From: a virus
Lineage: Duplodnaviria > Heunggongvirae > Uroviricota > Caudoviricetes
Length of the DNA stretch: 8,436 bases
Virus record (IMG/VR): IMGVR_UViG_2548876860_000011
Coordinates: 1 to 8,436 of that record
Reading direction: 5' to 3' (one strand)
How positions within the stretch are numbered: the stretch's first letter is position 1; every line of letters starts with the position of its first letter. Below, one piece after another: positions 1-8,436 of the stretch. The translations under genes and the position numbers were made by a program. The notes beneath the pieces were generated by a model. It had not been told where the DNA came from. It worked only from the letters and a program-made list of their open reading frames with translations, and did no database searches.

Positions 1-216
1 ATGGCTGAAATGAAAAAAATATCTTTGGTTTCTGAAGTCAATACCTACATCAATACCCATCAGTGGCCTGGCAAAGCTGCTATTGGTCGTCTGAAAGGCG
101 AGGAACTGGCGCAATATAATTTGTGGCTGGATTATCTGGACGCACTGGAGCTGATCGATACTTCCGGTGCGCCAGATATTGAATGGCCTACGCCTCCGGC
201 AGTTCAGGCCAGATGA
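1..216 (+). CDS. tail fibre assembly protein, C-terminal portion (probably 5'-truncated by the window edge; alternative cassette of the invertible segment)
   Basis: The 71-aa ORF ends ...LWLDYLDALELIDTSGAPDIEWPTPPAVQAR, which parallels the C-terminus of the 197-aa Tfa on the opposite strand (...LNAVLDYIDAVTATDTSTAPDVIWPELPEA). The two ORFs converge and overlap at 188-216, as U/U' genes do in Mu G-segment-type inversion regions. Tfa proteins are normally much longer than 71 aa, so the ATG at position 1 is likely an internal Met. Confidence 0.5.
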   Translation: MAEMKKISLVSEVNTYINTHQWPGKAAIGRLKGEELAQYNLWLDYLDALELIDTSGAPDIEWPTPPAVQAR

Positions 217-781
217 CATCCGGCGCGGTGCTGGTATCTGTTGCCGTCACCGCGTCAATGTAATCCAGCACAGCGTTAAGTCTGGTTGTTTCTGCCTGCG
301 TCAGTTTATGTCCGGCCTGCAATTTCAGTTGAATCAGACTGATGGAAGCCATTGCTGCATCAATCAGTGACTGGCGCTGTGCTTCTGCCGCGTCTACTGC
401 GGCACCGTGTTGTGCCTCAGTATCTGTCACCCATTTCTCACCATCCCATTTATCATATGGCGTTAACGGTGAAAGCGTGACATAACCGTTTTTGATGGCA
501 CCGATATAACCCACTGTAACAGCAGCACCATTTTCGATTGAGTAAACAGTCTCATTGCGATGGTCTTCTTCATGGCTCCATCCCTTACCTGTAAATACTG
601 CCACTTTTCCCGGAATGTTTTCGCCCGGGTCAATACCAGTGGAACAGGCGGGCATACTTACGCCAGTATTAATATATTCATCAGACCAGCCCGTATACTC
701 AGATGTTTCAGCATCATAATAAAAACAACGCATATCGCCCGGCACTGTAGCCAGCCCATTTTCATCAAAAACAGGTTTCAT
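188..781 (-). CDS. phage tail fibre assembly protein (Tfa family)
   Basis: 197-aa ORF. Its ATG (779-781) overlaps the stop of the upstream tail-fibre ORF (TAATG on the minus strand), which suggests translational coupling. The C-terminal motif matches the Tfa family. Position next to a tail-fibre C-terminal cassette and a pin invertase gene matches e14/Mu/P1 architecture. Confidence 0.8.
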   Translation of the reverse strand: MKPVFDENGLATVPGDMRCFYYDAETSEYTGWSDEYINTGVSMPACSTGIDPGENIPGKVAVFTGKGWSHEEDHRNETVYSIENGAAVTVGYIGAIKNGYVTLSPLTPYDKWDGEKWVTDTEAQHGAAVDAAEAQRQSLIDAAMASISLIQLKLQAGHKLTQAETTRLNAVLDYIDAVTATDTSTAPDVIWPELPEA

Positions 782-1275
782 TATTTAGCCCTCACCAGAA
801 AGTTAAATGCAATATTTCGCGGTCTGACAGCAACAAAATTCACACCATCACCCACCGAGTTACTGGTGAAATTAAATCGTGAAAATCCTGGCTGATTTCC
901 GGCGATGCCATCATGAAAGTTAATTGCGTGTCCCGCACCTTCGCCTATATTCCCGGCAAACTGAGAAAAGTTTGTAGCGGCCTGCCAGCTTAATAATTCG
1001 CGACCACCGTCTGCACCTCGCCCGTCATCCCAGATACGAATGAAATCACCGCGGGCTTCAGGTAATACCAGCGAAGGAAACACTTTCGCCAGCACAGGGT
1101 AATCAGAGGCAGAAAATTTCGTCCCGTTGAACTTCAAAAACACCATACTGGACCAGCTGTCGATTACAGTATTTGGCATTGCGGCGGAGGGCCAGAAGAA
1201 TGGAACGCCAATAGCTGGAGCACCTTCTACCAAACCAACGTTTACGAAAATGAATATTTCAGGTGCAAATGGCAT
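781..1275 (-). CDS. tail fibre protein C-terminal variable-domain cassette (promoterless, silent in this orientation of the invertible segment)
   Basis: 164-aa ORF, Gly/Asn-rich as in tail-fibre receptor-binding tips. No room exists for a constant N-terminal part, because pin starts at 1305 on the other strand. A hix/gix-like crossover site lies inside its 5' end (1225-1250), so the ATG at 1275 is probably not a real start. Equivalent to stfE' of e14. Confidence 0.65.
   Translation of the reverse strand: MPFAPEIFIFVNVGLVEGAPAIGVPFFWPSAAMPNTVIDSWSSMVFLKFNGTKFSASDYPVLAKVFPSLVLPEARGDFIRIWDDGRGADGGRELLSWQAATNFSQFAGNIGEGAGHAINFHDGIAGNQPGFSRFNFTSNSVGDGVNFVAVRPRNIAFNFLVRAK
1225..1250. other. site-specific recombination crossover site for the Pin/Hin/Gin invertase (hix/gix/pix-like)
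   Basis: TTCTACCAAACCAACGTTTACGAAAA is a 26-bp imperfect inverted repeat with the conserved AAACC-NN-(G/C)GTTT centre. Compare hixL TTCTTGAAAACCAAGGTTTTTGATAA as remembered. It sits about 55 bp upstream of pin and inside the 5' end of the tail-fibre variable ORF, where these sites normally lie. Confidence 0.55.
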
Positions 1276-1304
1276 GCTCCCGGCTTTTAGCGATGGGATT
1301 GATC

Positions 1305-1856
1305 ATGCTTATAGGCTATGTACGGGTGTCAACAAATGACCAGAACACAGCATTGCAAAGAAACGCGCTCGAGTGTGCAGGATGTGAACTGATTTTCGAA
1401 GATAAGATCAGCGGTAAGGTGTCCGACAGACCAGGATTAAAAAAAGTGCTCAGGACGCTATCAGAAGGCGATACGCTGGTGGTATGGAAGCTGGATCGCC
1501 TCGGTCGCAGCATGCGGCATCTTGTCGTGCTGGTCGAAGAAATGAGGGAGCGAGGGGTAAACTTCCGTAGCCTGACCGACAGTATAGATACCTCAACACC
1601 AATGGGGCGCTTTTTCTTTCATGTCATGGGGGCGCTTGCCGAGATGGAAAGAGAGCTTATTGTTGAGCGAACACGGGCTGGCTTAGCTGCTGCGCGCGAA
1701 GATGGTCGGATCGGCGGCAGACGACCAAAGTTAACCGCAGAAGAGTGGGCTCAGGCTGGAAGGTTGATTGCTGCAGGTGAGTCTAGAAAACGTGTGGCTA
1801 TAATTTATGATGTAGGGGTGTCGACGCTATACAAAAAATTTCCTGCGCAGCGTTGA
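1305..1856 (+). CDS. pin: serine recombinase, DNA invertase of the Pin/Hin/Gin/Cin family
   Basis: 184-aa product MLIGYVRVSTNDQ... with the catalytic Ser in VRVSTNDQ, the conserved LVVWKLDRLGRS and SLTDSIDTSTPMGRFFFHVMGALAEMERELIVERT blocks, and a C-terminal HTH (VAIIYDVGVSTLYKK). The ORF track starts at an upstream GTG (1263), but the ATG at 1305 gives the canonical N-terminus. Confidence 0.9.
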   Translation: MLIGYVRVSTNDQNTALQRNALECAGCELIFEDKISGKVSDRPGLKKVLRTLSEGDTLVVWKLDRLGRSMRHLVVLVEEMRERGVNFRSLTDSIDTSTPMGRFFFHVMGALAEMERELIVERTRAGLAAAREDGRIGGRRPKLTAEEWAQAGRLIAAGESRKRVAIIYDVGVSTLYKKFPAQR

Positions 1857-1984
1857 GAAAACGCCACCGCGTCGTCGTATGCAAGAACGGGCGGCGACGA
1901 ACTGGCGAACGTTCGATAGTGCGAGTATTGAATGATTGCCAGTCACGGCGGATTGTACTTAAGCAATATGACGGTTCAAGGCGT

Positions 1985-2227
1985 TTAATCTGAAACCAGC
2001 CACATATCAGCCTTTTCAAACATTTCCTGAACAGTACGGCTTATCTGTTCCTTCTCATGCTTGCTGGCGTCAGTGTTGATCGCCGGCAGTGTCATCATCG
2101 GTTTTACCCGGACATCAGCATCAGGGAAGACCCGGTGAACCCTCTTAGTCAATTCGCCCAGAATGATATCTTTTGCACCGGGCAGGCCATCAAAATTCCT
2201 TTTGTCATAAACGAGTTCCACGAACAT
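1985..2227 (-). CDS. DinI-family DNA-damage-inducible protein
   Basis: 80 aa, MFVELVYDKRNFDGLPGAKDIILGELTKRVHRVFPD...EKEQISRTVQEMFEKADMWLVSD. This is collinear with E. coli DinI (81 aa, ...KEDKQRISEILQETWESADDWFVSE). RBS AGAGG lies upstream of the ATG at 2227, and a LexA-box-like site sits 16 bp upstream. Confidence 0.8.
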   Translation of the reverse strand: MFVELVYDKRNFDGLPGAKDIILGELTKRVHRVFPDADVRVKPMMTLPAINTDASKHEKEQISRTVQEMFEKADMWLVSD

Positions 2228-2242
2228 TGCTTATTGCCTCTT

Positions 2243-2262
2243 TACTGGATGGATACACAGTG
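2243..2262. promoter_or_regulatory. LexA (SOS) box-like operator in the divergent dinI-like / orf80 intergenic region
   Basis: TACTGGATGGATACACAGTG fits the CTG-N10-CAG core of the LexA consensus TACTGTATATATATACAGTA, with CTGG in place of CTGT. It lies between the divergent starts at 2227 (-) and 2302 (+). Confidence 0.5.
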
Positions 2263-2301
2263 CTTGTGCTGTTTTTTTATCCAGTGTTCAAGAAGGGGTT
2301 A

Positions 2302-2544
2302 ATGATGCCACAACGTAGCGATATTGAAATAGCCTGGCATGCTTCGATACAGCGAGAACCGAATGGCCGGAAGACTGTCACCACACAGCGGTTTGTCCAG
2401 GAACTGGGTAAGGTTAACTGGCACTGGACGATGAAGCAGGCCAACGATTGGATAGAATGTTATGTGACAACATTCCGCGATGTATCAACGCAGGAAGGCG
2501 AGAACCGAACCTTTCAGCTGTTCAATCCAAACGGAGGACTTTAG
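2302..2544 (+). CDS. hypothetical small protein (80 aa), probably SOS-regulated and co-transcribed with the downstream umuD'-like gene
   Basis: ATG at 2302 with AAGGGG RBS 4-10 nt upstream. The stop at 2542-2544 is 2 bp before the umuD'-like ATG. Codon composition is typical of the surrounding genes. No motif recognised by eye. Confidence 0.5.
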   Translation: MMPQRSDIEIAWHASIQREPNGRKTVTTQRFVQELGKVNWHWTMKQANDWIECYVTTFRDVSTQEGENRTFQLFNPNGGL

Positions 2545-2546
2545 CC

Positions 2547-2976
<430 letters not shown>

Positions 2977-3645
2977 TCATATTGGCGTTATTAGTTCGGC
3001 GCCCTGATTTTTCACATTCCCGACGGCACGCGTTACGGCGTGCCATATAAATTTATCAGCCGGTACAACACCGTCGGCTGCAATTTCCGCTGCTTCTTTC
3101 CCTCCAACATCCTGCCTCATCCATTCACGCGCGGCTTCCGGTAGCAGTACCAGTGGTCGTCTGTCGTGAATATCAACCAGTCCTTTGTCAGCTGCAGCTG
3201 TAACTATCAGGAAACCTTCTGCTTCATCTCCACGTTCGAATGGTGTGCTGCCGATCGCCGCCATAAAAATCGGCTGACCGTCTGCCCGGTGAATAAAGTA
3301 GGGTTGTTTTTGGTCGCCTTCCTTTTTCCACTCATACCATCCATCAGCAAAGCAAATTGCGCGGCCATGCTGCCAGAGTGGTTTAAACATTCTGCTGGTG
3401 GCAGCAGTTTCAGACCGTGCATTAATGAGCGGCGGTTTATCCCACCAACCGGGGGCGTATCCCCAGATAACTGGATCAAGATGCAACTGCTCATCACGTT
3501 CGCTCAGAAGCAGAACTTTTGTTCCTGGCGCTACGTTGAATCTTCCGATGGGTTCTGGATCGTATGGAATATCGCGTTCTGATTCATCAGCGAGAAGGGC
3601 AAGATAATCTTCACGGGTCATTGACTGTGAAAAGCGTCCACACAT
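2977..3645 (-). CDS. SOS-response-associated peptidase (SRAP, YedK family; abasic-site processing protein)
   Basis: 222-aa product begins MCGRF (the Cys2 nucleophile hallmark of SRAP) and is collinear with E. coli YedK as remembered (...DPEPIGRFNVAPGTKVLLL...WGYAPGWWDKPPLINARSETAATSRMFKPLWQHGRAICFADGWYEWKK...). Strong RBS GGAGG precedes the ATG at 3645. It is convergent with the umuD'-like gene and abuts it with no spacer. Confidence 0.85.
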   Translation of the reverse strand: MCGRFSQSMTREDYLALLADESERDIPYDPEPIGRFNVAPGTKVLLLSERDEQLHLDPVIWGYAPGWWDKPPLINARSETAATSRMFKPLWQHGRAICFADGWYEWKKEGDQKQPYFIHRADGQPIFMAAIGSTPFERGDEAEGFLIVTAAADKGLVDIHDRRPLVLLPEAAREWMRQDVGGKEAAEIAADGVVPADKFIWHAVTRAVGNVKNQGAELITPI

Positions 3646-3879
3646 AGAAACCTCCAGCCGTATGTCAGACTGAAAGTATAGGGCAGTTAGAAAAAGTGGT
3701 GCACACCGTTAAAGATTTAAAAGGAGCATGTAAGGTAAATCGGAATGATGGTTTTGTGAATTGATGAATTCCGAAAGTGAAAAAGATACTTAATCATTGT
3801 GTGCTGGCGATACGGGGGCAACATTTGACGGGGTTTTTCCCCTGTAATTCCCCATTGCTTCCCCGTTCAGAAAACAGGC

Positions 3880-3904
3880 AAAAAAACCAGCCGTAACAGG
3901 CTGG
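3880..3904 (-). terminator. rho-independent terminator (native tRNA terminator carried in repeat copy 1; also terminates the 4043-4828 gene)
   Basis: On the minus strand: CCAGCC-tgttac-GGCTGG hairpin followed by T7. Confidence 0.7.
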
Positions 3905-3919
3905 TTCTTCGAGGATTTT

Positions 3920-3964
3920 TGGTCGGCACGAGAGGATTTGAACCTCCGCCCCCCGACACCCCAT
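3920..3964 (-). pseudogene. tRNA-Pro 3' fragment (about 45 nt: anticodon-proximal part, T-arm, acceptor 3' strand and CCA); not a complete tRNA gene
   Basis: Minus-strand sequence ATGGGGTGTCGGGGGGCGGAGGTTCAAATCCTCTCGTGCCGACCA has T-stem/loop GGAGG-TTCAAAT-CCTCT, acceptor 3' strand, discriminator A and CCA. It matches the 3' portion of E. coli proL tRNA-Pro(GGG) as remembered, with one mismatch. The 5' half is absent; flanking sequence diverges after 3964. Confidence 0.7.
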
Positions 3965-4042
3965 AGTGTCGTGCTAATATTCTGATGGCCTATATGCGTC
4001 TACAGTAAGTTGATAGCATCATTCGTCGGTCGCTTCGTAGTC

Positions 4043-4828
4043 TCACATACGGATAAAATTTTTTCTATTGATTTTGTCTCTATCAGAGCCATAAATGATG
4101 GTTGCAAAAAAACGACCTAATTCAAGATGGTGGAAGTGATTATCTTTTGCTTGAACTGTCATTGAGTCTAATATGTTATAGATGCATTCTATGATATGAA
4201 TAACTAATAAAGTGCGATAACCAGCAAGCATTTCACTTCTTTTAAGTAAATAATTTAAATCCCCTGCAGAGTTTATATGGTTTCTGTCTTCATCATAATA
4301 TCCAAGCACATAGCATGGCAGTGTTTCACCATAGCTTCGGTATTGCTCGCATTTTTTATCAATTATATTTTTTTGTCTTTTTGTTAATATTTTGTCGTAA
4401 ATGCTCTTATCGATTTCATTATACCATTGCTTCATGGGATCATTGTCGTTGTCATTAGTAATGAAATCAATATTACTATATCTTGATGAATTTGCAAAAT
4501 TAGTTAACAACTCCATCACTCTGTAGTGAATTTCATTTAAGCCAGAGGGAGAATCAACTCTCTCAATGACTAGGTTAAATAACTTGCTTAAGTTATGACC
4601 GTAATCTCTTAATTTTTTGCGTGATGTATATTTTCCATTTTTATTATAATCATCAAGCATAAGGCAAAGTTTCATAAGCCTTTCTAATCCTAAACTGATG
4701 CCGGATAATGCTTGAAAATACAATCCTCTACTTGCAAAATTTGCTTTCCTTAGGGAAGTGAGCCCTATGCCTAATAATTGTCTTGAAAAGTCAACCTCAT
4801 CAACAAATCTTCTGTATTTTTCATCCAT
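4043..4828 (-). CDS. hypothetical protein (AT-rich cargo gene; possible phage-defence/abortive-infection candidate, function unknown)
   Basis: The ORF track gives 4043-4858 (271 aa), but position 4856-4858 is a TTG with no RBS. The in-frame ATG at 4826-4828 has GAGG 6-9 nt upstream, giving 261 aa starting MDEKYRRFVDEVDF. GC content is roughly 30%, against roughly 50% in the prophage genes to the left. No catalytic motif recognised by eye. Confidence 0.6.
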   Translation of the reverse strand: MDEKYRRFVDEVDFSRQLLGIGLTSLRKANFASRGLYFQALSGISLGLERLMKLCLMLDDYNKNGKYTSRKKLRDYGHNLSKLFNLVIERVDSPSGLNEIHYRVMELLTNFANSSRYSNIDFITNDNDNDPMKQWYNEIDKSIYDKILTKRQKNIIDKKCEQYRSYGETLPCYVLGYYDEDRNHINSAGDLNYLLKRSEMLAGYRTLLVIHIIECIYNILDSMTVQAKDNHFHHLELGRFFATIIYGSDRDKINRKNFIRM

Positions 4829-4892
4829 AAAAACCTCAGTCAGCCAATTAATATTCAAGAATGATTTCTATAAAGAACTAATCTAGTTAAAT

Positions 4893-4928
4893 CATCTGAT
4901 GTAATTAGTATTACAATACCATCAGACG
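4893..4928. promoter_or_regulatory. nested palindrome upstream of the 4043-4828 gene (candidate operator)
   Basis: CATCTGATG-(18 nt)-CATCAGACG inverted repeat, with an inner GTAAT-tagt-ATTAC palindrome, centred about 80 bp upstream of the ATG at 4828. Confidence 0.3.
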
Positions 4929-5014
4929 ACATTGAAGCAGTATTGTGCCTTATCTACCCTATGTACGTCCATTGATAAAAATCTGCGCTTTTCGCAGTGG
5001 GGTCAACCGTAAGC

Positions 5015-5136
5015 TAATTTCCCCATTGCTTCCCCGTTCAGAAAACAGGCAAAAAAAACCAGCCGTAACAGGCTGGTTCTTCGAGGATTTTTGGTCAGCA
5101 CGAGAGGATTTGAACCTCCGCCCCCCGACACCCCAT
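5015..5136 (-). repeat. direct repeat copy 2 (~122 bp): flank + intrinsic terminator + tRNA-Pro-like fragment
   Basis: About 97% identical to 3845-3964. Confidence 0.9.
5051..5076 (-). terminator. rho-independent terminator (copy 2; downstream of the 5333-6301 gene on the minus strand)
   Basis: CCAGCC-tgttac-GGCTGG hairpin followed by T8 on the minus strand. Confidence 0.7.
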
Positions 5137-5150
5137 GGCGGTGATCTACC
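5092..5150 (-). pseudogene. degenerate tRNA-Pro-like fragment (about 60 nt from the D-loop region to CCA; 5' part not recognisable)
   Basis: Same T-arm and acceptor 3' end as copy 1, with G to A in the acceptor strand. The match to tRNA-Pro extends further (GGTAGATCACCGCCATGGGG vs GGTAGCGCACCGTCATGGGG) with mismatches. No convincing 5' acceptor strand. Confidence 0.6.
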
Positions 5151-5332
5151 TTCTCATCAAGGGTAACCATGTGCCAGAAGCAGCCCTTGCGCACATTGGA
5201 TGGGTATCAAATAATGAAGTAGGTCAACTTTATTAAATAAAATTGTGTTGGTTCAGATGATCGAATGGGAATGAATAGTTTATTACTTTTGGTGACCGCA
5301 AGCGCGATCACCTTCGATTTGGTGGCAATTAC

Positions 5333-6301
5333 CTAGAATGATGCACAATCTTTAAGCTCTTTTTCTAGTTGTTCAACCAAGTCACAGCATTTTTTGATAA
5401 CATCTTTAACTGACTCTGAATCTAACTTATGAAAATTACCATTTTTTGTTTTACCTGCTCGATGAACTAAGTCATGCCTAATTAACACGCTTTTATAAAC
5501 TTCTGTGAAAACAGGGAATTTAATACCAAAGGTATCTCGATACATGCCACTTACTTTTGGCAGATTATGATAAAGAACACTCTTCATAGACTCTATCGCT
5601 TGAGACTCTATTTGTTCATGCCTTATAAATAATTCAGAAAGTAAGAATTTTTCTGTATTGTAATCTTTGAAGGTTTCAACAAAATTTCTCAAATTAGTTT
5701 GGCTACCATGAATTAGGGAAATAAATCTGTCACATAAATATGTTTCCAAGGAAGTTATTGTATTGGCATATAGCATATACGATATTTGTATTTGTAAAGT
5801 GCTATCAATTTTTAACTGAGCATCATTTAGTTTTATGGCGTTCTGCATACTATTTTGGAATGTCATATAGACATCTCGTTCAGATAGCGTTCGATCATCA
5901 GAGTACTGCATATCAATAACATCTAGAATGCGCTGTTCGATTAATGAAGGTCTATTCAACTGTAATATATCTATAGTCGCATGTCCTCGCTCAGTTAAAC
6001 CTTCTAAATATCCATTTTTATTTTGTTTCATATGTTCTGAAAAACTTTCATTTAAAGGATTTAGAAGTAATGGTTTGCCATTTTCATCGAGAGGAAACTG
6101 ATCTTTTTTAATCATGCTACATGCCTTACAAGCGATGAGCAGGTTGTCTGTAGCATCTTGGAAGTCAGTATACTTTGATTTTGGGAAAAAACGATCAACA
6201 TCCGCCATCAATGGTTCATAAAGTTTAGTGCCACAGTAAGCACATTGATGCTTAAACTTCTCCCATAGTTCAAGTTTAAACGTTTTATAATTCTTATTCA
6301 T
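5333..6301 (-). CDS. hypothetical protein with N-terminal HNH-like Cys-rich motif and C-terminal HEPN-like Rx4H motif (candidate nuclease/RNase toxin or abortive-infection effector)
   Basis: 322-aa ORF with ATG at 6299-6301 and AAGGAA RBS. N-terminus: CAYCG...DVDRFFPKSKY...DNLLIACKACSMIKKD, an HNH-type CxxC...D-x-D-[H]...N...CxxC layout, but with Arg where the catalytic His normally sits. C-terminus: SVLIRHDLVHRAGK, i.e. R-x4-H as in HEPN RNase motifs. Very AT-rich. Occupies the slot next to icdC where K-12 e14 carries mcrA. Confidence 0.7.
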   Translation of the reverse strand: MNKNYKTFKLELWEKFKHQCAYCGTKLYEPLMADVDRFFPKSKYTDFQDATDNLLIACKACSMIKKDQFPLDENGKPLLLNPLNESFSEHMKQNKNGYLEGLTERGHATIDILQLNRPSLIEQRILDVIDMQYSDDRTLSERDVYMTFQNSMQNAIKLNDAQLKIDSTLQIQISYMLYANTITSLETYLCDRFISLIHGSQTNLRNFVETFKDYNTEKFLLSELFIRHEQIESQAIESMKSVLYHNLPKVSGMYRDTFGIKFPVFTEVYKSVLIRHDLVHRAGKTKNGNFHKLDSESVKDVIKKCCDLVEQLEKELKDCASF

Positions 6302-6745
6302 TGAATAGTTCCTTTATATTCTTGACTTGATTGTTTGTTTGCCAATTTAAGCCAAAGACACACGACTTTAATTGGGCTTGAATCATAGTTATATGTAATC
6401 TATTAAGCAAACACTTTTCATTAATAGCATGAGATAACGCTCAATTCTTTATTTTCCGGGAGTGTGTAACTTCATATCCACCTCTCACTCACAGCGTACG
6501 TTATTGGCGAAAAATTTAGTTAAGCCATTGATAGTTTGTGAAAACACGCATGATTTAAAATCCCTTTGCCGTGAAGGGGCTGATAGGTACAGGCACTTGT
6601 TTTTGCCCTCTAAAACGGTTATCAAAACCAAAAAACATACATTGATAATCAATAGGTTAGGGGAAAGATAAAAGCCAGTTGATTTACAATAAAATTATAG
6701 GATTATTTTTATTTATCATGCGGTTGTATATGAACCATCTAACTA

Positions 6746-6910
6746 CTGTTACGCCATATGGGCTGGACTGAAGCCGCAGACCTGATTGTTAAAGGTATGG
6801 AAGGCGCAATCAATGCGAAGACCGTAACCTATGACTTCGAGCGTCTGATGGAAGGCGCTAAACTGCTGAAATGTTCAGAATTTGGTGATGCGATCATCAA
6901 GAACATGTAA
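6746..6910 (+). pseudogene. icdC: displaced 3'-terminal fragment of icd (isocitrate dehydrogenase), the att-site duplication at the right end of the e14-like element
   Basis: In-frame translation [55 protein letters not shown] matches the Icd C-terminus as remembered. An in-frame stop precedes it at 6740-6742 and no icd-like coding sequence lies upstream (AT-rich intergenic DNA). The length (about 165 nt) matches the icdC remnant of K-12. Confidence 0.8.
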
Positions 6911-6933
6911 TCACTACATGTGTTTAATATTGC

Positions 6934-6967
6934 AACGGGCGTATAACACGCCCGTTGTTTTATTTAT
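6934..6967 (+). terminator. rho-independent terminator of icd
   Basis: AACGGGCG-tataaca-CGCCCGTT perfect 8-bp stem followed by GTTTTATTTAT, beginning 24 nt after the icd stop. Confidence 0.75.
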
Positions 6968-7012
6968 GTAGGTACTATTAATAGCATATCGAGCATATTT
7001 ATATAAAACCCT

Positions 7013-7336
7013 TTACTTGAGCCCATATGGGCATATTTTTATAATGCAACTATTATGCAAACATTTATTTGTTATTTTTCTTTCTCCTGGAGGACACTCT
7101 TGACTGCTTTTGAGTAGACTCCATAAATCCTTGTTGAATGGTGCGATGTTATAAATAGTAATAGGATATTCTTTATCTTTAAGGATAATTCCAGATTTAA
7201 CCGGTGTAAATATACTGCCAGGAGGGAGAAATATAGTAGATTGATACCAGATGATCATTTTCATATTACCCCATATGGCTGAAAAAGATATGCCGCATGA
7301 AGGTTGAATTATCGTGTCAATTACTATCCACTTCAT
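7013..7336 (-). CDS. iraM: anti-adaptor protein IraM (inhibitor of RssB-mediated RpoS degradation)
   Basis: 107-aa AT-rich [35 protein letters not shown]... Length, sequence as remembered and position immediately right of icdC match E. coli iraM (elbA). Confidence 0.75.
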
Positions 7337-7773
7337 TTGTTATGTCTTATCCCACGGTATTTAATATACTTCATTTGGATGTTCATTTCTTTATTTTGCA
7401 TATGAGTATATTACCCCTTCAAAAAATAAATTAATTAAAACGATTGCTTATATAAAACAAAATTTAAAGCAAGGAATCTCAATGGATGTTAAACAAAATG
7501 AGATTTAGTGAAAACAATAAATTATTCACTTCGTTTTAGATTTGTTTAGCTATAATGTTATACATTCAAATGACTGAACATCCTGTAATTAAAACATAGC
7601 CTTTATGCTACTTTGTGCCAATTTGCTAAACATTATGGTTGCCTTTTTATATAACGATAATAATGAATATAAGCATGACATGAGAATAAGGTTTCAATTT
7701 TTGAGTTATATAGGAAAGGTTTAACCTGTTCCTGGCTAAAATACATATAACTGGATGATGACTAAACCAAAAC

Positions 7774-7828
7774 ACATGTGCGTTAAGTATTGAAACGGGC
7801 GTATGGCACACCCGTTGTTTTTATAAAT
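7774..7828. repeat. second, diverged copy of the icd terminator region (hairpin AACGGGCG-tatggca-CACCCGTT + T-run)
   Basis: ACATGTGCGTTAAGTATTGAAACGGGCGTATGGCACACCCGTTGTTTTTAT is about 80% identical to 6917-6967. It lies between iraM and ycgX, oriented as a plus-strand terminator although both neighbours are minus-strand genes. Confidence 0.6.
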
Positions 7829-8031
7829 ATATTAACCGTTATAAAATAACGTATAGAAAGTCAAGTGATCACATTTCAAATATCAATTTGATAGTATTGG
7901 CATGGTGATTATTTATGGGTAGCAATAAAAGGACAGTATTTATCATCCATAGGGATAGTCTCTGTACTTTTATTCCCATTATGCTAATGCCTTACTGAAT
8001 TATGAAGCATTTCTTAAGCATCCAACTTTAG

Positions 8032-8436
8032 CTAGATTAATGGTTTATTATTTTCTACATCTTCAATATATAAAAGCGTATTATCAATGGCGTAGTAACT
8101 GCGTTTGTTATGATTAACATCAGTAACCCACCGGAAAACGCCCGCGCCTGCTAGTGTTGAACAGTATTCCCGAAATGTAGATTTTCCGCAAATATGAAGC
8201 AATGCGGCCTCTTTTATTTTAGCAGGGTTCTTGGTCGTACTAACTTTTAACAGGTTCCTGGTTCCTCTTAATAACAAAACCGTGTCATCGTGAGTAATAA
8301 TTCTGATGTTATCCGTAGCCAGATAATAAATGTAATGTGCAATACGGTGATGTTTTAATTCTGAATAAAACCAGGAGAAGTTTTGCTCTTTTCTCACTTG
8401 CTCAAACATCTTTTGAAAAACAACGACCTGATCCAT
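8032..8436 (-). CDS. ycgX: YcgX-like protein (DUF1398 family), host gene
   Basis: 134-aa ORF starting at the window edge (ATG at 8434-8436 on the minus strand). Length and position after iraM match the K-12 order icdC-iraM-ycgX. Sequence recognised only by context and approximate memory. Confidence 0.65.
   Translation of the reverse strand: MDQVVVFQKMFEQVRKEQNFSWFYSELKHHRIAHYIYYLATDNIRIITHDDTVLLLRGTRNLLKVSTTKNPAKIKEAALLHICGKSTFREYCSTLAGAGVFRWVTDVNHNKRSYYAIDNTLLYIEDVENNKPLI

Follow-up and report, generated by a model that had tools for sequence, protein, structure and literature searches.

What is the function of a gene that takes the place of mcrA in an e14-like prophage? We analyzed an 8,436-nucleotide stretch of viral DNA (IMG/VR record IMGVR_UViG_2548876860_000011, positions 1 to 8,436; hereafter the window). 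Its cargo slot next to icdC contains a gene encoding a 322-amino-acid protein. An initial annotation of this DNA had described the product as an orphan that combines a degenerate HNH motif with a HEPN-like motif. We found that the N-terminal half of the protein is homologous to PtuB, that the C-terminal half is a HEPN module with an invariant catalytic motif, and that the gene moves among cargo hotspots without a partner gene. We suggest that the gene is stand-alone prophage cargo, and probably encodes a single-protein anti-phage factor of the abortive-infection type with a HEPN ribonuclease (RNase) as its obligatory effector.

A PtuB-like domain is fused to a HEPN module

The gene and the parts of its product are located as follows.

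5333 to 6301, minus strand: coding sequence of the 322-amino-acid HNH(PtuB-like)-HEPN protein, identified from the list of open reading frames (ORFs), an exact-sequence look-up, and the annotation that the Prokaryotic Genome Annotation Pipeline (PGAP) gives to this gene in strain AH01.
6310 to 6314, minus strand: Shine-Dalgarno-like AAGGA, 8 nt ahead of the ATG and kept in the Serratia and Proteus copies (sequence reading, upstream alignment).
5828 to 6292, minus strand: N-terminal PtuB-like domain (amino acids ~4-158), an HNH core with a PtuB-specific helical extension.
6107 to 6244, minus strand: HNH core with a Cys4 zinc site (C20, C23, C58, C61) and a degenerate catalytic centre, from alignments.
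5336 to 5884, minus strand: C-terminal HEPN module (amino acids ~140-322), common to proteins with other N-terminal domains.
5459 to 5479, minus strand: RHDLVHR (amino acids 275-281), the Rx4H HEPN catalytic motif from R275 to H280, invariant in 46/46 full-length relatives.

The ORF starts with ATG at 6301-6299 on the minus strand and ends with a TAG stop at 5333. Its product is identical to WP_024234292.1, which is annotated 'HNH endonuclease'. The G+C content of the gene is 0.31-0.34, compared to approximately 0.50 for the phage genes on its left. This composition and the AAGGA sequence agree with the earlier description of an AT-rich gene with its own ribosome binding site. The motif strings quoted at that time are all present in the ORF: CAYCG (amino acids 20-24), DVDRFFPKS (34-42), NLLIACKAC (53-61), and IRHDLVHR (274-281).

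We found that the N-terminal half is related to PtuB. PADLOC models of PtuB matched amino acids 6-156 (E 1.9e-23), and the homology was also found in PDB profile matches and in structure matches. A PDB sequence search with the single window protein was uninformative; a profile was required. The NCBIfam PtuB equivalog model gave a weak score (32 bits; cut-off of 150). Since this score is below the cut-off, the N-terminal half is a relative of PtuB and not an equivalog. The HNH layout noticed initially is thus a real zinc-finger HNH core, but it is part of a whole PtuB-like domain and not a generic HNH.

The catalytic centre of this domain is altered in the window copy. In the family profile, IEHFyPK aligned with IEHFRPR of solved PtuB chains, and the window copy reads VDRFFPK. 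Based on this alignment, Arg37 (codon 6191-6193, minus strand) is at the position of the HNH general-base His, consistent with the initial claim that Arg had replaced the catalytic His. A second change is at position 62 (codon 6116-6118, minus strand), which is Asn in 36/46 relatives and Ser in the window copy. This Asn is putatively the metal-binding Asn, given the nine-residue spacing after the structural Asn in the Cas9 HNH domain. All four zinc cysteines are intact in the window copy.

The C-terminal half has two features of RNase-type HEPN domains: an all-alpha helical-bundle HEPN fold and a conserved Rx4-6H motif, the signature that the initial annotation had recognized and that is here R275-x4-H280. 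A profile search with this module found 2239 cluster representatives at E <= 0.001. In 133 superfamily representatives, H280 was invariant and R275 was at least 90% conserved. The same module, from about amino acid 140, follows Zn-ribbon-like, HEPN/RES-NTD1, phosphorylase and other N-terminal domains. Matches to the Pfam family PF18735 (RiboL-PSP-HEPN) were found for 13 of 36 relatives (best E 5.7e-9) and for 80 of the 133 wider representatives (best E 2.6e-12). PADLOC searches with the C-terminal half alone, and with the Zn-ribbon and NTD1 relatives, found no defence model except a marginal RTasHEPN match in the last helix.

The HEPN site is invariant and HNH catalysis is repeatedly lost

The protein is not an orphan. 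In addition to the 2239 representatives of its C-terminal module, we found approximately 45 full-length relatives in the protein database (at 90% clustering; 37-83% identity) from Serratia, Proteus, Enterobacter, Pantoea, Vibrio and metagenomes. Contigs from one genome per species added Pseudomonas, Algoriphagus, Minicystis, Faecalimonas, Flavobacteriia, and metagenome-assembled genomes of Saccharibacteria and Oscillospiraceae. The relatives span several bacterial phyla. Conservation was counted in 46 aligned full-length members.

Seven residues, R275, H276, D277, H280, R281, E186 and H245, were invariant (46/46). The HNH His was lost in 9/46, where it was replaced by Arg (twice), Gln (three times), Ala or Ser, or was deleted (twice). 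All four zinc cysteines were kept in 44/46, and each Cys was conserved in 44-46 of 46. Because the His has been lost in several members, the Cys4 site is nearly always kept, and RHDxxHR is invariant, HNH catalysis appears to be dispensable, in contrast to the zinc module, and the HEPN site is retained without exception. The pairwise ratio of nonsynonymous to synonymous substitution rates (dN/dS) was 0.19-0.31 in both halves, which indicates that both are under purifying selection. A short Rx4H match alone would have little weight. Given its invariance and relatives with dN/dS of 0.2-0.3, the ORF is judged to be more than a chance occurrence.

Arg37 and Ser62 were present in every E. coli and Citrobacter cluster member that was read, and one variant was found on 463 contigs. 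We considered general decay of the N-terminal domain in E. coli. This was ruled out: the window copy has 3/37 changes at conserved columns, like other members and with no excess, and dN/dS is ~0.2-0.3. The N-terminal domain of the E. coli and Citrobacter lineage is most likely non-catalytic, because the catalytic His has changed to Arg and a conserved Asn to Ser while the zinc cysteines and the fold have been kept under purifying selection.

The same pattern bears on a different explanation, in which the protein is a restriction-like enzyme with two nuclease activities. Its HNH DNase would then act as the effector, HEPN would have a regulatory or secondary role, and the E. coli copy with Arg37 and Ser62 would be a crippled or inactive remnant. 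Most relatives keep the HNH His (37/46) and the acidic residue ahead of it (40/46), the N-terminal half is homologous to PtuB, a proven nuclease effector, and the same slot in K-12 holds the HNH restriction enzyme McrA. However, the His has been lost by several different changes in members with intact ORFs and an invariant HEPN motif, and R37/S62 is widespread and the sole form seen in E. coli and Citrobacter. The selection on both halves and the normal number of changes at conserved columns do not fit a remnant, and the HEPN module persists behind N-termini that are not nucleases. We consider this explanation unlikely for the window protein. The degenerate HNH seems limited to some lineages, and most members of the family may be dual nucleases. 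The initial proposal, of a zinc finger joined to a HEPN effector, therefore fits this copy, in which the HEPN motif is invariant and HNH catalysis seems dispensable, but may not extend to the 37/46 members that keep the His.

The gene moves alone among cargo hotspots

Two further features define the context of the gene.

5169 to 6495, minus strand: mobile module of ~1.33 kb, made up of the gene, 194 bp upstream and 164 bp downstream (blastn against fetched loci, upstream alignment).
6758 to 6910, plus strand: icdC, the duplicated 3' end of icd, which marks the right end (attR) of the e14-like prophage (ORF translation, PGAP annotation, K-12 comparison).

We found that the module, which holds a single gene, has counterparts of approximately 86% identity in P4-like satellites of Serratia and in an island of Proteus. 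A consensus promoter scan found fewer sites than in shuffled controls, so we claim no promoter, only a conserved 194-bp upstream stretch. The gene order in the window is pin-type invertase (1263-1856), DinI-like gene, frameshifted S24 (UmuD-like) peptidase, SRAP peptidase, 261/271-amino-acid gene, 322-amino-acid gene, icdC, iraM and ycgX. The counterpart order in K-12 is pinE-mcrA-icdC-iraM; the window has pin, five other genes and then icdC-iraM. The gene is thus in the e14 cargo slot in which mcrA lies next to icdC in K-12, as was initially proposed.

Relatives occupy similar sites in other elements. In P4-like satellites they lie between the primase gene and an integrase remnant, and in a Pantoea lambdoid prophage between the repressor region and xis-int. 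The Proteus relative is in an icd-adjacent island, beside retron I-A and a NACHT protein, and another integrative element has a relative near SIR2-HerA. Vibrio relatives are in arrays of short, same-strand, cassette-like (integron-like) genes, and these arrays also hold toxin-antitoxin pairs. In distant phyla, relatives are beside SIR2-like, Fic, DUF2806 or CAP12/Pycsar-type TIR genes. Clustering of the neighbours at 19 loci revealed no conserved partner family and no PtuA. A candidate partner, a 310-410-amino-acid gene upstream on the same strand in many distant loci, was rejected because these genes are mutually unrelated, being of SIR2-like, Fic, DUF2806, TIR and other types. The context strongly suggests swapped-in defence cargo, the better supported part of the initial proposal of a swapped-in defence or toxin gene; the defence or toxin role itself, RNase activity and nucleic-acid binding are properties that we infer.

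Several observations were made at these loci. The Proteus sp. CD3 island (L013, 87-13077) adjoins an icd-like fragment that is 82% identical to window 6744-6911. It contains a reverse transcriptase, an ATPase and a 215-amino-acid gene, in a retron I-A-like order, and the NACHT protein, the HNH-HEPN gene and an integrase. Here, in a different genus, an e14-like integration site has been re-used to house a defence island. In the Serratia P4-like satellites (L002-L005, ~7320-7667) a small DUF6404 gene adjoins the HNH-HEPN gene, in L005 (7387-7734) on both sides. A DUF6404 gene is also beside an NTD1-HEPN relative in a Vibrio cassette array (L017, 6498-6854), and is absent from the window. This neighbour may be a coincidence or a recurrent hotspot neighbour. 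In most of the E. coli contigs read (L109-L111, L113 and L114, about 2400-5500), the 322-amino-acid gene comes after xis, int and a short ORF at the icdC position, rather than after the chromosomal ycgX-iraM seen in the window. Such an arrangement would be consistent with e14-like prophages in tandem at icd, or with a phage genome that is permuted. The 322- and 261-amino-acid genes were always together in E. coli.

The pattern of mobility could also be explained by a toxin or addiction module that stabilizes its mobile element or takes part in competition among such elements, with the HEPN RNase as toxin. The gene is always on mobile elements, Vibrio relatives share their arrays with toxin-antitoxin pairs, and the structural matches include HEPN toxins of such pairs (8xdj, 5yep, 7ae2). 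Against this, the shared module is one gene only, with no conserved adjacent gene of antitoxin size and no MNT partner, and the nearest single-protein HEPN factors to have been characterized become toxic only when triggered by a phage protein (PMC13017515, PMC13043305). Taken together, these points make a toxin or addiction function rather improbable.

A compact 1.3-kb module in unrelated elements is also what might be expected of a free-standing, selfish gene for an HNH homing endonuclease. It would spread by cleavage of empty sites, and the HEPN-like part would be no more than a helical extension that binds DNA. Matches to phage HNH endonucleases in PHROG do span the N-terminal half. Such a gene would hardly lose its catalytic His repeatedly and keep a C-terminal Rx4H invariant. 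The insertion sites are cargo hotspots in which no common target sequence was identified, and the closest HNH relatives are PtuB effectors and not homing enzymes. We regard a homing function as very improbable.

We give as little credence to an anti-defence decoy, a dead PtuB mimic that binds and poisons PtuA complexes of host Septu or retron I-A systems. The N-terminal half does match nearly the whole of PtuB, its HNH is dead in the window lineage, and prophage ends are generally known to carry counter-defence genes as well. However, the HNH is intact in most relatives, a decoy leaves the invariant HEPN catalytic motif unexplained, and the Proteus gene beside retron I-A in one island suggests coexistence over antagonism.

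Proposed function

Our favoured explanation for the 322-amino-acid protein is the abortive-infection-type factor proposed above. The C-terminal HEPN domain would be the obligatory effector, a predicted RNase. By analogy with other HEPN enzymes, R275 and H280 of the Rx4H motifs in two paired copies would together make up a composite active site, and pairing or oligomerization would switch the RNase on. PtuB, the HNH nuclease of Septu and retron I-A, is presumably the source of the N-terminal half. This half retains the appearance of an active DNase in most family members, which may thus cut DNA as well as RNA. In the E. coli and Citrobacter lineage the probably non-catalytic domain might bind nucleic acid or a phage protein, or might restrain HEPN until infection.

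Several findings weigh against this explanation. The window protein matched PF18735 with 16 bits (E 0.012; gathering score 28.4), and the C-terminal profile found no sequence-related solved structure. With the HNH intact in 37/46 relatives, its cleavage activity may be central to most family members. The locus was present in only 8/5426 complete E. coli genomes, so any benefit is not general. Guilt by association with hotspots is also compatible with toxins and anti-defence genes. PtuB is known as an effector, not a sensor, and to our knowledge a sensor role is without direct precedent.

A more specific possibility, which we put forward tentatively, is that the protein represents a new class of single-protein immune sensors. 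A PtuB effector domain would have been re-used as a non-catalytic zinc module that detects a phage cue and switches on the fused HEPN RNase. If so, the HEPN module (>2000 clusters, with HNH, zinc-ribbon, NTD1 and other N-termini) could be a large family of swappable sensor-plus-RNase defence proteins.

The family is a natural experiment on the second domain of such proteins: relatives with live and dead HNH coexist, and the HEPN site is invariant. Testing it would show whether a PtuB-type nuclease can be a sensor or scaffold, would give a first function for the HEPN module of >2000 protein clusters, and would enlarge the known cargo of prophage and satellite hotspots by a compact 1.3-kb defence gene. 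The single-protein HEPN defences HepS and RAZR were explained only recently, and both sense phage structural proteins directly.

Other features of the window

A 117-nt direct repeat (3848-3964 and 5019-5136, 99-100% identical) brackets the 261-amino-acid gene. It corresponds to the 3' part of a tRNA-Pro gene and its terminator, and lies under a 'tRNA-Pro' annotation beside the SRAP gene in other E. coli. ARAGORN found no complete tRNA in the window. The tRNA and Rfam scans together gave zero tRNA genes and two sub-threshold Rfam matches only, and the tRNA-like stretches are fragments. The repeat looks like an att-site duplication from small islands that inserted into tRNA-Pro and were later carried into the prophage. 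One weak Rfam match, to the small RNA tpke11 (6915-6985, plus strand, just past icdC; 26 bits, gathering score 43, E 0.033), may be due to chance.

The cargo slot also contains three genes of the DNA-damage response (1985-3645), encoding the DinI-like protein, the UmuD-like (S24) peptidase and the SRAP (YedK-like) peptidase. This SOS-related set adjoins two HEPN-fold genes. Kinship of these two adjacent genes was considered and rejected (hhalign probability 0.4%). A perfect (CAGC)x13 tract (2612-2663) is inside the frameshifted S24 peptidase gene. Strain AH01 has 11 CAGC copies and is 99.8% identical over the searched 3.2-kb stretch next to the tract; neither 11 nor 13 copies alone restores the frame. 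The tract may be a slipped-strand on/off switch, which would be unusual for E. coli.

Comparison with known systems

The N-terminal half is homologous to PtuB (TIGR02646), which serves as HNH effector in Septu (PtuAB) and in retron I-A (Ec78, Eco7). In contrast to PtuB systems, there is no PtuA ATPase gene beside the 322-amino-acid gene in the window or at any of the 19 loci. The window protein also differs from PtuB in its C-terminal HEPN fusion and in H37R and N62S, two positions that are intact in most relatives. The complete retron I-A near the Proteus relative is a separate unit, with its own 215-amino-acid gene in the PtuB position. Based on the missing PtuA, the sub-equivalog score and the broken active site, we conclude that the gene is not, as far as its sequence can tell, a Septu or retron I-A system.

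McrA of K-12 (EcoKMcrA) occupies the same e14 slot. The two proteins are non-homologous overall: matches of the window protein to mREase_IV and 6ghc were confined to the HNH region. In addition, the window copy has a dead HNH centre and an added HEPN. With this degenerate centre, it does not appear to be a type IV enzyme like McrA.

RAZR (PD-T7-4), from E. coli, combines an N-terminal Cys4 zinc ribbon with a C-terminal HEPN RNase in a single protein. It becomes active on ring proteins of the phage, and the zinc domain determines which phages it acts on (PMC13017515). The window protein likewise joins a zinc-binding domain at its N-terminus to a HEPN at its C-terminus, and RAZR is the best model, by analogy, for how it might work. 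However, the HEPN of RAZR is of the DUF4145 type with R146/H154, whereas the zinc site of the window protein is of the HNH type, within a PtuB fold, and its Rx4H-containing HEPN is of the RiboL-PSP type. Pfam-type and PADLOC scans of the window protein reported no match to a DUF4145 or PD-T7-4 model. Since the zinc domain and the HEPN family both differ, the protein is evidently not RAZR.

HepS, from prophage Gifsy-1, is a solo HEPN abortive-infection protein that cleaves tRNAs once a phage tail-tip protein has bound to it and is otherwise kept inactive (PMC13043305). Both proteins are prophage-encoded and stand-alone, with Rx4H and no partner gene, and hepS is also in an accessory slot, that of a lambdoid prophage. 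Unlike the window protein, HepS consists of one HEPN domain and lacks any HNH or zinc module, and no sequence relationship was detected between the two. No MNT nucleotidyltransferase neighbour, as in a HEPN-MNT pair, was found in the window or at related loci.

RiboL-PSP-HEPN (PF18735) was defined by Anantharaman et al. (2013) on endoRNase L-PSP fusions and operons with ParB, and is distantly related to AbiF/AbiD (PMC3710099). The C-terminal module of the family described here matches this profile and belongs through it to the HEPN superfamily. The 2013 survey also noted independent HEPN fusions to HNH/EndoVII-fold nucleases (PMC3710099). In the literature we found no paper on a fusion of a PtuB-like HNH to a RiboL-PSP-type HEPN, none on a PF18735 member with a tested function or solved structure, and no mention of WP_032162444, the AH01 allele. 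PADLOC 2.0.0 (2023) had no model for the C-terminal half or the whole protein; systems named later, such as the HEPN-only integron cassette 'Esos' and HEC-08, are outside this comparison. Within that scope, the initial view that the domain combination has no name stands. Single-protein HEPN defences and HNH-HEPN fusions are of a known kind, and the unnamed part is this particular union of a PtuB-like domain and a RiboL-PSP-type HEPN, in which HNH catalysis has repeatedly been lost.
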